A stretch of DNA of 64,000 nucleotides from Planctomycetia bacterium (GCA_020849035.1 JADLHC010000110.1:5269-69268); one strand, 5' to 3'. Shown: positions 3,271 through 15,482, numbered from the stretch's first letter. Program-made: numbers and translations. The notes: a model not told the origin generated them from the sequence alone.

Positions 3271-3420
3271 CGTATCCGTAGCATCCTTTTTCATCCGCGA
3301 CCCCGCCGTTCGTATCGCCGTTCATCCCTCCTCCACTCCATCCACGAATCCAGGGAAACCGGAGGATGTTCAGGGATAAGAACGGCGGGGTCGCGGATGA
3401 AAGAGGATTTCGGGGATACG
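3271..3420. repeat. Long imperfect inverted repeat (41-nt arms, 68-nt spacer), cargo-less member of an ATCCGCGA-core repeat family
   Basis: Left arm 3271-3311 (cgtatccgtagcatcctttttcatccgcgaccccgccgttc) matches the reverse complement of right arm 3380-3420. The inner 23 nt are perfect and the outer part has about 6 mismatches. Confidence 0.75.
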
Positions 3421-3424
3421 AACG

Positions 3425-4318
3425 TCAGAACAACTGCCCCTTCGGCTTCTCCGCAATCTCCTTCAACTCCGGGAACGCGACGACCAGCGGCTCCGGCACC
3501 TTCACCTTCTTCCCCAGCACCTTCGCCTTCAGCTGCAGCGCGTTCGCCGGCGCCTTCCCCCGGTAGTGGTTGTTCCCGATCACGTACAGCGCCTTCGACC
3601 GCGCCATCATCCGCTTGATCCGCTCCGCCCACGGCTCCAGCTCGGCCGCCGGATAGTAGTAGTCGTACCGCTCGTGCGGCTCGATGTCCTTCGCGAACCA
3701 CTTCTCCACGTTCCTCCCGTGCAGCCGCACGTACCCCACGTCCGCCGTCACGTGCTCGCTCGGCCCCAGGCAGTCGCGCTCCGCCGGCTGGTCCACATTC
3801 ACGAACCCGATCCCCCGCTCCCGCATCCACTCCACCACCTCCGGCCGCTCCCACGACGCGTGCCGCACCTCCACCACCACCGGCCGCGCGAACGCATCCG
3901 CCAGCCGCGCCACCCGCTCCCGCGCCGCCGCCGTGTTCCGGAAACTCCACGGGAACTGCAGCAGAAGCGGCCCCAGCCGCCCCGCCGCCTCGATCGGCGC
4001 GATCCCCTCCAGGAACCGCCGCGCCTCCGCCGCGCCCCACACCGGCTCGCTCGAAGCGGCCCCGACGCGCGCCGCCGGCTCGTGCGTGAACTCCTGCGAC
4101 ACTTTCACCGCGAACGTGAACGCCTTCCCCTCCACCTGCTTCACCCACCCCGCCGACAGCTTCACCTCCGGCGGCCGGTAGAACGTCACGTTCACCTCGG
4201 CGCACTCGAAGTACTCCGAGTAGAACTCCAGCGGCTTCCTCGGCGCGCTCGACGGATAAAACATCCCCGCCCAGTCCGCGAAGGACCACCCGGCGGTGCC
4301 GAACAGGAGGGAGCCCAT
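3425..4318 (-). CDS. DUF72 family protein
   Basis: N-terminus MGSLLFGTAGWSFADWAGMFYP is the typical DUF72 signature. The ORF track start at 4354 would overlap the upstream gene, so the internal ATG at 4318 is preferred. Confidence 0.8.
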   Translation of the reverse strand: MGSLLFGTAGWSFADWAGMFYPSSAPRKPLEFYSEYFECAEVNVTFYRPPEVKLSAGWVKQVEGKAFTFAVKVSQEFTHEPAARVGAASSEPVWGAAEARRFLEGIAPIEAAGRLGPLLLQFPWSFRNTAAARERVARLADAFARPVVVEVRHASWERPEVVEWMRERGIGFVNVDQPAERDCLGPSEHVTADVGYVRLHGRNVEKWFAKDIEPHERYDYYYPAAELEPWAERIKRMMARSKALYVIGNNHYRGKAPANALQLKAKVLGKKVKVPEPLVVAFPELKEIAEKPKGQLF

Positions 4319-4337
4319 GCCGGGATTATGACCGCGC

Positions 4338-4985
4338 CTAGAGCGCGCCACCATCCGGCCAGTTTGACCAGTGCGTATTCGGGTCGAGGGTCGGCCGGTA
4401 TCTGGTCAAGTCGCCGGTCGCCAGGAGTTCGGCGAGCTGGCGAAAGCTCTCGGACTGGCTTGGTCGCTCGCCAACCGACAGATCCGGGTGATTCCAGGCT
4501 TCCAGTTGGAGGACTTGGGGCAGGTCCGGAGGTAGTCGGGCGTGGATCTCCTCCTCCGTCGCGAAAAGAAGGTCGCGGTTGTCCGGGACGAGATCTCGAA
4601 ACACATCGATGAGTCGCCGGGCCTCCTGTCCGGCCTCGATTTGGATCTCCTTGCCTCGTATCTTCAGGCAGTCCACGCCTGACTGGAGGAACTCAGGATT
4701 CTCGGGATCCTCGAGTTCGCCCTCGATCGGAAACAAGAAGTCCTCATTTGCCGTGCCCGGAGCCCGCTTCAGGCAATTCCCGAACAGATGGAGGCAGTTC
4801 TGCAATCCACCTGATCTCGGACTGTAGCCAAGGCACTCGATGACAATCGCCCATCGTCCTTGATCGCGGAATACTCGAAGTCGCGAGTCCACGGGGAACA
4901 CGTATCCGTTGTCCAGCATCGGGAACACGAACCGTGCCGCACAGTCATCGAGTTGCCACAGGATCTCCTCGCGGGTGTAGCTCAC
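4338..4985 (-). CDS. Hypothetical protein
   Basis: 215-aa ORF with protein-like composition, unlike the Arg/Pro-rich shadow ORFs. Locally lower GC. No motif recognised. Confidence 0.55.
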   Translation of the reverse strand: MSYTREEILWQLDDCAARFVFPMLDNGYVFPVDSRLRVFRDQGRWAIVIECLGYSPRSGGLQNCLHLFGNCLKRAPGTANEDFLFPIEGELEDPENPEFLQSGVDCLKIRGKEIQIEAGQEARRLIDVFRDLVPDNRDLLFATEEEIHARLPPDLPQVLQLEAWNHPDLSVGERPSQSESFRQLAELLATGDLTRYRPTLDPNTHWSNWPDGGAL

Positions 4986-9235: not shown

Positions 9236-9592
9236 CTACCCGGCGCGCCGCAGCCGCAGGCGCGCCCGATCGATGGCGTCCACGACGGCCCTGATCCGCC
9301 GGCGGATTTCCAGTCCCGCCTCCCGTCCCAGCAGCCCGTCGTGCAAAGCGAGGTGCACCCGCGCCGCCAGCGCCGCCGCGGCGCCGCGTCCTTCTTCGAA
9401 CCCCGCGTCCGCGGCAACGCCGCCCGCGAGGCCGCGCTCCACGCACGCCGTCACCCGGAGCGCCTGCGCGAACAGCCGCTCGAATTCCCGAGTCCTGCGC
9501 CCCTCGCCGATCGACGGGCACAGCGCTCCGACGACGCCGGTCAGCTCCACGAGCGCGGTCCGCAGCGCAAGCTCCTCCCCGCTACCCCGCAT
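9236..9592 (-). CDS. Four-helix-bundle protein (23S rRNA IVS protein-like family), divergent
   Basis: SIGEGRRTREFERLFAQAL resembles the NIAEG..R.S.KEF..FL.IA core of that family, and the C-terminus is helical. Overlaps the ERCC4 gene end by 11 nt. Confidence 0.45.
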   Translation of the reverse strand: MRGSGEELALRTALVELTGVVGALCPSIGEGRRTREFERLFAQALRVTACVERGLAGGVAADAGFEEGRGAAAALAARVHLALHDGLLGREAGLEIRRRIRAVVDAIDRARLRLRRAG

Positions 9593-14388: not shown

Positions 14389-14913
14389 CTACTGCCGTTT
14401 CTTCTTCCTCTCCAGGAACATCCGCGCCGTCGTCGCCTGCACCGTCATCCCCTGCCGAAGCATGTCGGGAGCGCGCGACAGCCTCGCCTTCACGGTCCCC
14501 AGCGGCACCCCGAGCTCCTTTGCGATCACCGCCAGCTCCTTGCCCTCGTAGAAGCGCATCTCCACCGTTCGGCGGTACGCCTCCGGCAGGGCCGCCACCG
14601 ACGCCCGGATGAACTTCACCACCTCCTCACCGACGAGATCCGCCAGCGGCGACTCTTCGGAAGCTCCTTCCGGTTTCAACGGCGCCGGACGTCTCTTCAC
14701 CGCGACGTGCTTCAGCACTCCCCACAGCCACCCCCGGAACTCCCCTTTCGCCGGGTCGAAGTTCTGGAACGACGCGTAAACCTGGACGAAGGCGTCGTGA
14801 ACGAGGTCCAGGGCGGCTTCCTCGTCCAGCCTGCGCGCGCGGCGGAGCTGGTCCACGAGGGACTGGTACTCCCGGAGGAGGAGGTCGGAGGGGTCGGGCG
14901 TCTTCTCGCTCAT
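14389..14913 (-). CDS. ECF-type RNA polymerase sigma-70 family factor
   Basis: Region 2 (DLVHDAFVQVYASFQNFDP...FRGWLWGVLKHV) and region 4 (LPEAYRRTVEMRFYEGKELAVIAKELGVPLGTVKARLSRA). Confidence 0.8.
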   Translation of the reverse strand: MSEKTPDPSDLLLREYQSLVDQLRRARRLDEEAALDLVHDAFVQVYASFQNFDPAKGEFRGWLWGVLKHVAVKRRPAPLKPEGASEESPLADLVGEEVVKFIRASVAALPEAYRRTVEMRFYEGKELAVIAKELGVPLGTVKARLSRAPDMLRQGMTVQATTARMFLERKKKRQ

Positions 14914-14927
14914 GGCTTCCAGAGAAT

Positions 14928-15482
14928 ATCCGCGGCCGTTTCCGCCCCATCCTCCTTTATCCGCGAATTCCCTTCGCCTTTGCTATCCCGCCCTCGCGCC
15001 AAACTCGCTTCTCACCTTCCTCACGACTTCCACTTTCAATCCTCCGAAGTTCAGCAGCAGTCCCACGGGCATCCTGCCGGCGACCAGGTACGTCAGAAGC
15101 TGGGCCTCATGTGGGGGAGTGAGCTGCTGGACCGCTTTGAGCTCGAGGATGACGCCATCGACGCAGACAAAGTCGGCAGCGAACGTCCCGACGGACTCTC
15201 CCTCGTAGCAAACCTCGAGCGGGACCTCACGCCGGAACGGGATCCCGGCCTTGCGGAGTTCGATGGCGAGCGCGTTTCCGTAGACGACCTCGGGGAGGCC
15301 GGGGCCGAGCCGGTTGTGGACGCGGAACGCGAATCCGATGATGCGCCGGGTGAGGTCGGAGTGGAGGGCGTCGGTGTGGCGCATCATGGGCAGGACTCTA
15401 TCGTACGTATGTATAATGTCAACAGTTCTTCTAATAACAGAATTCGCGGATGAAGCAGGATGGGGCGGAAACGGCCGCGGAT
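14928..15482. mobile_element. Inverted-repeat-bounded cassette carrying a GxxExxY gene
   Basis: 43-nt terminal inverted repeats at 14928-14970 and 15440-15482, with 2 mismatches. They share the core ATCCTnnTTnATCCGCGA with the 3271-3420 hairpin. No transposase or target-site duplication seen. Confidence 0.5.
14983..15387 (-). CDS. GxxExxY protein (PD-(D/E)xK nuclease-like family)
   Basis: Family signature GLPEVVYGNALAIELRKAGIPF...ADFVCVDGVILELKAV...QLLTYL. Start at MMRH; the ORF-track N-terminal extension reads through the repeat arm. Confidence 0.8.
   Translation of the reverse strand: MMRHTDALHSDLTRRIIGFAFRVHNRLGPGLPEVVYGNALAIELRKAGIPFRREVPLEVCYEGESVGTFAADFVCVDGVILELKAVQQLTPPHEAQLLTYLVAGRMPVGLLLNFGGLKVEVVRKVRSEFGARAG

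Follow-up and report, generated by a model that had tools for sequence, protein, structure and literature searches.

A GxxExxY nuclease gene nested within one copy of a dispersed family of phased-word hairpins in a genus of Planctomycetia

Introduction

Why does a small nuclease gene lie between two inverted repeats of a kind that recurs elsewhere in the same genome as hairpins without a gene? The question is raised by a cassette at positions 14928-15482 of a 64,000-nucleotide stretch of DNA from a Planctomycetia bacterium, referred to here as the window (C110:5269-69268 of genome G000, a 5.4 Mb assembly of 70% GC in 349 contigs). The initial annotation of this DNA regarded the cassette as the cargo-bearing version of a small repeat family, of which a hairpin at 3271-3420 was the empty version, and suggested that the gene is either the passenger or the mobilising nuclease of a palindromic element.

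The gene belongs to the GxxExxY family. GxxExxY and four-helix-bundle genes belong to families that are linked to contexts such as the ORF-bearing 23S rRNA intervening sequences of Leptospira and Coxiella. Full-text literature searches on GxxExxY returned essentially nothing, and no described function. We analysed the cassette, its protein and its repeats in the window and in the whole G000 assembly, and compared G000 with seven other species-level genomes of the genus (G001-G007).

Results

A nuclease gene with its own promoter lies between inverted arms

The cassette holds a single, intact gene on the minus strand (14983-15387), placed exactly between inverted arms, as the initial annotation had described. 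The downstream arm (14928-14970) and the upstream arm (15440-15482) are 43 nt long and complementary at 41 positions, and reach 56 nt at 86% under looser matching. Four phased WTCCGCS words make up the pattern of the upstream arm, which has GAATTC at its inward end and is matched by both nhmmer and the arm model R1 described below. The downstream arm lies 12 nt past the stop codon of the nuclease gene and is separated by 14 nt from the start codon of an ECF sigma factor gene, which confirms the close spacing proposed initially.

A sigma-70-like promoter is located within the arms on the minus strand (15395-15422), and consists of TTGACA, a 16-nt spacer and TAGAGT. It matches 10 of the 12 consensus positions, where shuffled sequences are expected to yield 0.2 such promoters, and the same layout is found in the orthologous cassettes of G002 and G003. 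Since the promoter ends 7 nt before the ATG, the mRNA is predicted to be leaderless. Moreover, because the promoter is situated inside the arms, the cassette's own transcript carries one arm only and cannot form the long stem. The ECF sigma factor gene (14389-14913, minus strand) has the orientation of the cassette and follows directly downstream, an adjacency that is kept in G002 and G003; transcription from the cassette promoter may continue into it. On its other side, the cassette is flanked by a divergent Ser/Thr kinase gene. These protein-coding flanks distinguish the cassette from a 23S rRNA intervening sequence, and the Rfam search found no rRNA in the window.

The encoded protein of 134 residues matches the GxxExxY family TIGR04256 (E of 6e-39, 133 bits against a cut-off of 35) and the PDDEXK_3 family PF13366 (E of 4e-38, 130.8 bits against a cut-off of 22, profile positions 2-116 of 117). 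The catalytic residues D71, E81 and K83 and the G-x-x-E32-x-x-Y35 motif are intact, and E32, Y35, D71, E81 and K83 are invariant across 44 homologues; a homologue search with the protein returned 2,387 homologues. A search of the solved structures in the PDB by sequence gave no match. The AlphaFold model of the protein (pLDDT of 92) has a restriction-endonuclease-like α/β core, and its best Foldseek matches were Cas4 SSO0001 (4ic1; E of 2e-4, TM-score of 0.51-0.56), lambda exonuclease, RecE and the AdnAB nuclease domains. The four-cysteine motif of an Fe-S cluster is absent, the protein having two cysteines only. We infer that the gene encodes a minimal PD-(D/E)xK nuclease of the Cas4/RecB-like type.

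A gene-less hairpin shares a core word with the cassette arms

The empty hairpin at 3271-3420 is real, with dimensions that differ from those given initially: its arms (3271-3327 and 3364-3420) are 57 nt long, 81% complementary and separated by 36 nt. Folded as DNA, it reaches -52 kcal/mol (z of -8 against shuffles). The hairpin is close to the stop codon of a DUF72 gene (3425-4354, minus strand), as had been observed, at a measured distance of 4 nt. No known RNA family in Rfam matches the hairpins, and no T-run or U-tract was found beyond the stems.

The initial annotation had also proposed a core common to all four arms, and had set beforehand that similarity no greater than background would count against it. 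The word ATCCTnnTTnATCCGCGA occurs once in each arm, at 3283-3300 (plus strand), 3391-3408 (minus), 14949-14966 (plus) and 15444-15461 (minus), and nowhere else in the window, giving exactly four copies where shuffles expect 0.02. Across the 5.4 Mb genome there are 11 copies, all in such arms, against about 0.002 predicted from base composition.

Two families of phased-word arms are dispersed in the genome

Searching the whole G000 assembly with BLAST and iterated nhmmer identified 33 arms of the family of the cassette (A) and 27 arms of the family of the gene-less hairpin (B) at E < 0.01, while the sequence models R1 (A) and R2 (B) detected 34 and 33. With about 33 arms per family, the possibility raised at the outset that the arms occur nowhere else in the genome does not hold. 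The A consensus is ATCCGCGGCCGTTTCCGCCCCATCCGCCTTCATCCGCGAATTCC, with a mean column identity of 91%, and the B consensus is ATCCCTTTTCATCCTTTTTCATCCGCGACCCCGCCGTTCnTATCC. Arms of both families are arrays of ATCC-type words spaced at 9-12 nt, approximately one turn of DNA; in the A arm, the WTCCGCS words start at positions 1, 13, 22 and 32. The two have the core TTCATCCGCGA in common, and this core word alone, and are distinct sub-families. Thus, the initial proposal of one repeat family with empty and cargo-bearing copies stands in that the arms are dispersed, with many gene-less and few gene-bearing copies, but the two loci of the window belong to different sub-families, one locus to each.

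Every A arm, the cassette arms included, starts with the SacII-type palindrome CCGCGG and has the EcoRI-type GAATTC at its inward end. The latter is a hexamer expected to be rare at 70% GC.

The majority of arms pair in inverted orientation to form hairpins of 80-200 nt (9 of family A and about 11 of family B). The shortest A hairpins have the apical loop TCCnTTCTTGAAAnGGA in common, which indicates that the whole hairpin behaves as a unit. A minority of arm pairs are separated by approximately 500-800 nt, and each surrounds one gene. All four PF13366 genes of G000 are enclosed in this way: the window gene by A arms, one on C230 by B arms, and those on C69 and C246 by B variants. An A pair at C57:1576-2103 surrounds an orphan gene of 152 codons with four predicted transmembrane segments, the C-terminus of which is read from the arm. 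Another, at C110:4414-5212 (56-855 nt upstream of the window start), encloses an orphan ORF of 221 codons for which we found no Pfam match and no paralogue. Since A arms surround these unrelated genes, they do not need the nuclease as cargo. A further A pair, at C282:3716 and C282:8714, is 5 kb apart. At C246:1-696, a B-derived 38-nt unit, ATCCGCGACCCCGTCGTTCCATCGTCGTGATCGTCGTG, is repeated in tandem to form the 86-nt arms of the fourth GxxExxY cassette, and the same unit makes up a gene-less tandem array at a contig end (C138:25-119).

We compared partner with non-partner arms for 11 A pairs. Partners are 84.9% identical and non-partners 84.7% (permutation p = 0.46), which implies that it is the consensus sequence that is kept, and not pairing alone. 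Among the arms, which are about 85% alike, no two were found that are near-identical copies of the sort that would hint at recent movement.

The core is the target of an unrelated element

At twelve contig ends, corresponding to about six insertions, a multi-copy element abuts the core, in every case at TTTTTC^ATCCGCGA within an A or a B arm; the insertion point, TTC^ATCCGCGA, is the core common to the two families. One end of the element is found at C110:1-113 (5.2 kb upstream of the window), C115, C159, C338, C89 and C157, and the other end at C120, C128, C135, C136, C173 and C299. The ends read CTCAGAAAACAGCC... and ...CCTCGTGACGATTC, and one of them encodes a protein C-terminus, ...ADYFDRRDKERLKSKLVKRLGELGFEVTVTQKQPA. 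None of the seven congeners has the element, and the G000 assembly lacks its interior. Exact-word scans of metagenome and genome collections returned nothing, and its 35-residue C-terminal peptide had no significant family or plasmid match. An unrelated element that targets the arm core indicates that the arms attract insertions.

Four-helix-bundle genes have arrays of their own

The divergent four-helix-bundle gene proposed initially at 9236-9592 (minus strand) was not borne out. This ORF of 118 codons has no Pfam or NCBIfam match at E ≤ 0.01, PF05635 and TIGR02436 included, and is not among the 11 PF05635 matches of the genome. Several long ORFs overlap in the GC-rich stretch where it is situated, and it is uncertain that it is a real gene. 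Eight of the 11 PF05635 genes in G000 each lie within their own inverted arrays of tandem 7-10-nt units, the unit differing from gene to gene (C49:4867-5664, C278:2517-3182, C321:600-1309, C227:25891-26584, and loci on C315, C251, C192 and C287). Examples include 13 copies of GGCGGAGGCT on each side of the gene, and AGTRGGC heptamers.

The window cassette is vertically inherited

The cassette is found between the kinase and sigma factor genes in three species, G000, G002 and G003. In G001 the locus has degenerate, gene-less arms only, and in G004 and G005 the cassette is missing and a different gene lies upstream of the sigma factor gene. The nuclease orthologs of the three species share 70-73% identity, with dS of about 1.2 and dN/dS of 0.15-0.18. 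The window cassette has therefore not moved: it is inherited vertically at one locus, under purifying selection. Between species, the cassette arms are 84-91% identical, and the arms of G000 and G002 are 91% identical while dS of the enclosed gene is about 1.2. Two arm positions have changed on both arms together between these two species. The B cassette on C230 likewise has an ortholog in G004, and no genome has more than one nuclease gene per arm family.

Gene-less hairpins turn over at orthologous sites

For 12 elements, we joined the two flanks and used them to search the genus, and the junctions of five sites were aligned. The DUF72 site of the window (3271-3420) is empty in G002, has a B hairpin in G000, G001 and G004, and has a solo A arm in G003. 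At the C238 site, the flanking genes overlap as TGATG in G005 and G007, and an A hairpin lies between them in G000, G002, G003 and G004. At the C230 site, G000 and G004 have the GxxExxY cassette, and G002 has a hairpin without a gene that belongs to its own arm family; G003 and G001 carry other palindromes, and G005 and G007 nothing. The site of the C69 cassette is empty in G003 and G005. Finally, the C57 site has an A hairpin with a loop of 17-25 nt in G001, G003 and G004, a B-variant hairpin in G002, and A arms around a 440-bp gene in G000. This membrane-protein gene is absent from the seven congeners and has relatives of 34-36% identity only, in two other families, which indicates that it was gained inside the hairpin loop.

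Orthologous sites are accordingly empty, filled, or filled by another family, and identical structures in the relatives, which would have spoken against mobility, were not what we found. Where hairpins are orthologous, the arms are kept and the loops replaced. The hairpins are positioned just past stop codons, between convergent genes and between the cistrons of operons. As the genus diversified, gene-less hairpins have appeared, disappeared and been exchanged for others between genes and at the junctions of operons. The mobile-element pattern suggested for the window thus holds in part: insertion sites do differ between relatives, but the gene-bearing copy is fixed in three species and it is the gene-less hairpins that turn over. 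At the five aligned sites, the flanks between the genes have diverged too far for a target-site duplication or an exact excision scar to be read.

The A hairpin at C255:4268-4419 lies exactly at a break in synteny. G001 and G003 have 3.2 kb between the flanks that is missing in G000; one flank is inverted in G002 and G004, and a solo A arm is present at the G004 junction.

Arm families follow nuclease clades across the genus

The seven congeners have between 0 and 7 PF13366 genes per genome. Flanking inverted repeats of at least 17 nt were found for 22 of the 28 GxxExxY genes of the genus, and a TTGACN-16/17-TANNNT promoter lies between the upstream arm and the ATG in 16 of the 28 cassettes, compared to 11 of 5000 random 140-nt windows. 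In a maximum-likelihood tree, the proteins cluster by arm type. The A clade comprises proteins of G000, G002 and G003, and a B/B-variant clade contains ten proteins (support 93/93). Two further clades are a promoter-bearing one with CACGGA arms (support 100/99) and a promoter-less one with CACAGAG arms that abut the ORF. Every one of these four clades has its own arm word. Beyond the genus, ATCC words, here with a period of 9 nt, also frame a homologue of 57% identity from an unrelated metagenome that is rich in AT.

Models R1 and R2 were used to count arms in each genome. Besides the counts for G000 given above, we found 12 A and 13 B arms in G001, 70 and 23 in G002, 66 and 5 in G003, 61 and 39 in G004, 28 and 8 in G005, and 1 and 49 in G006. 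G007 has 1 A arm, no B arm and no PF13366 gene. A canonical B-armed gene is present in G000, G004 and G006, which have the three highest B counts (33, 39 and 49); there are 8-23 B arms where only variant genes occur, and 5 and 0 where none occur. The genomes with an A-armed gene, G000, G002 and G003, have 34, 70 and 66 A arms. The exception is G004, in which 61 A arms are well conserved although its assembly (82% complete) contains neither an A-clade gene nor a fragment of one. Thus, within each family, the abundance of arms tracks the presence of the gene in seven of the eight genomes, a co-occurrence over related genomes that is confounded by shared ancestry.

Discussion

The nuclease gene, together with its promoter, occupies the apical part of one hairpin of a dispersed family. 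In this genome, arms pair as hairpins of approximately 100-150 nt at about 10 sites per family. We propose, tentatively and stopping a little short of calling it probable, that the nuclease gene of the window, present in one copy and passed on vertically, is nested in one of the dispersed repeats that its own product targets, in the manner of REPIN/RAYT and NTS/Ssn, with an action of the protein on the arms that we infer from this arrangement. The GxxExxY protein would recognise its own arm family by the phased words, and would cut or nick the arms, probably when these are single-stranded or extruded, and the gene-less hairpins would be maintained, and perhaps dispersed, in trans. A side effect could be that the cassette promoter reads into the adjoining sigma factor gene. 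Conservation of the consensus, the phasing of the words at one turn and the location of the promoter inside the arms together point to a protein that reads the sequence of DNA, rather than to an RNA stem.

Other explanations of the same features differ in what they make of the gene. It could be a passenger in a landing pad: independent REP-like hairpins would be moved or kept by a host or mobile function, their loops would take up small, self-promoted selfish genes, of which GxxExxY is the commonest, and the nuclease would serve its own insertion or retention in a homing-like or addiction-like manner. The C57 arms, which gained an orphan membrane-protein gene of 440 bp in G000 and are short-looped in three congeners, fit this explanation, as do the second A pair around the orphan 221-codon ORF, the 61 A arms of G004 with no A-clade gene, and the multi-copy element that targets the arm core. 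However, a passive lodger is not expected to form clades that match the arm families, or to have arm abundance track its presence in seven of eight genomes, and the nuclease genes, at most one per arm family per genome and orthologous, give no sign of repeated homing into the at least 10 loops available. We therefore regard the passenger explanation as possible, though rather unlikely. Efficient homing of the gene into empty hairpins was also considered as the main process in its own right, and was rejected on the finding of one gene per arm family per genome, orthologous across species. A RAYT as the mobiliser was likewise rejected, since PF01797 (Y1/RAYT) is absent from all eight genomes, while six of 14 control genomes gave matches.

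The stems could instead act as RNA, with the arms pairing in read-through transcripts and being either processed by RNase III or used as insulators, terminators or stabilisers. The cassette mRNA would in this way be freed from transcripts of the host, as in the ORF-bearing intervening sequences of 23S rRNA, and the gene-less hairpins would be REP-like punctuation of mRNA. The stems are long and stable, and the hairpins are found past stop codons, between convergent genes and between operon cistrons. The promoter-less GxxExxY clade, in which the arms hug the ORF, depends on transcription from the host; the two cassette-arm positions that differ between G000 and G002 changed on both sides; and the layout resembles the ORF-bearing intervening sequences of Coxiella and Leptospira. 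Set against this, the promoter lies within the arms in the window cassette and in 16 of the 28 cassettes of the genus, leaving their own mRNA with one arm. The complementarity of partner arms does not exceed that of random pairs from the family, and the consensus is kept across species; there is no U-tract and no Rfam family, and the 10-nt phasing of the words is suggestive of binding on a single face of the DNA duplex. A role in RNA processing or insulation, which we consider improbable, is a better fit to the promoter-less clade than to the window cassette. That the palindromes are chance features, or ordinary GC-rich intergenic DNA unrelated to the gene, has the 70% GC content in its favour and nothing else, and the chance of this is negligible: the core counts (11 copies against about 0.002 expected) and the number of arms (at least 60 at E < 0.01) refute it, and four out of four GxxExxY genes are flanked by arms.

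A broader proposal can be made, which is speculative and on balance doubtful. GxxExxY proteins in general may be the trans-acting partners of phased-word hairpins, a PD-(D/E)xK counterpart of RAYT and Ssn, in which each paralogue would read its own 7-nt words and would keep and spread its repeats. The gene would stay fixed for millions of years, and the loops would be landing pads for foreign genes, as at C57. If true, the very large GxxExxY family would gain a function, and a new class of intragenomic replicators with long lifetimes would be defined. Nucleases of programmable sequence specificity, each tied to its own repeat, would explain a common class of hairpin repeats in bacteria and archaea, and would make available small nucleases with diverse and readable specificities. 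The genus itself contributes orthologous sites that are filled, empty and re-occupied, a fixed copy of the gene, arm counts that mostly track the gene, and a foreign gene captured in a loop.

Comparison with known systems indicates what is shared and what is particular to this arrangement. The intervening sequences of 23S rRNA similarly place one small gene within a long stem of short repeats. The window cassette is situated in the intergenic DNA between protein-coding genes rather than in an rRNA helix, carries a promoter of its own within the stem, and has arms of a kind that often occurs without a gene. MITE and Correia-type elements resemble the gene-less hairpins in being short inverted repeats without genes, found between genes and within operons, and present or absent between relatives. 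The inverted arms of a MITE are present here; a transposase-bearing parent element was not found in recognisable form, no target-site duplication was seen at the diverged flanks, and the arms are internally periodic, unlike those of such elements.

A close parallel is that of REP doublets and the REP-associated tyrosine transposases, the REPIN-RAYT system (PMC3116915, PMC3337134, bioRxiv 10.1101/2021.07.10.451892). Here, as there, a single-copy gene lies between inverted copies of a repeat whose gene-less hairpin doublets are scattered through the genome, the gene is inherited vertically under purifying selection while the repeat population varies (0-70 arms here), and different gene clades go with different repeat families. 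Yet the gene encodes a PD-(D/E)xK nuclease of about 130 residues instead of an HUH Y1 transposase, PF01797 being absent from the genus. The arms are arrays of phased 7-nt words where REPs are a single stem-loop, there are no populations of identical copies, and partner arms do not co-vary.

The Ssn GIY-YIG single-strand nucleases offer a second parallel, in which a small nuclease gene is framed by the NTS/SRM repeats that are cut (PMC11893778). Both are stand-alone, small nuclease genes, often flanked on both sides by a hairpin-forming repeat that is dispersed in the genome, and in both the specificity co-varies between homologues and their own repeats. Cleavage of the repeat is demonstrated for Ssn and proposed here from the arrangement of gene and repeats, and the Ssn repeats are short single hairpins. 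The folds also differ, since the GIY-YIG domain of Ssn (cd10448) is not that of our protein, which is a PF13366 member with a PD-(D/E)xK fold. We thus appear to have an undescribed PD-(D/E)xK variant of a known theme, that of a nuclease or transposase with its cognate repeat, for which such partnerships have so far been known for other folds only. If so, PD-(D/E)xK would be the third independent fold, beside HUH and GIY-YIG, to have adopted this lifestyle.
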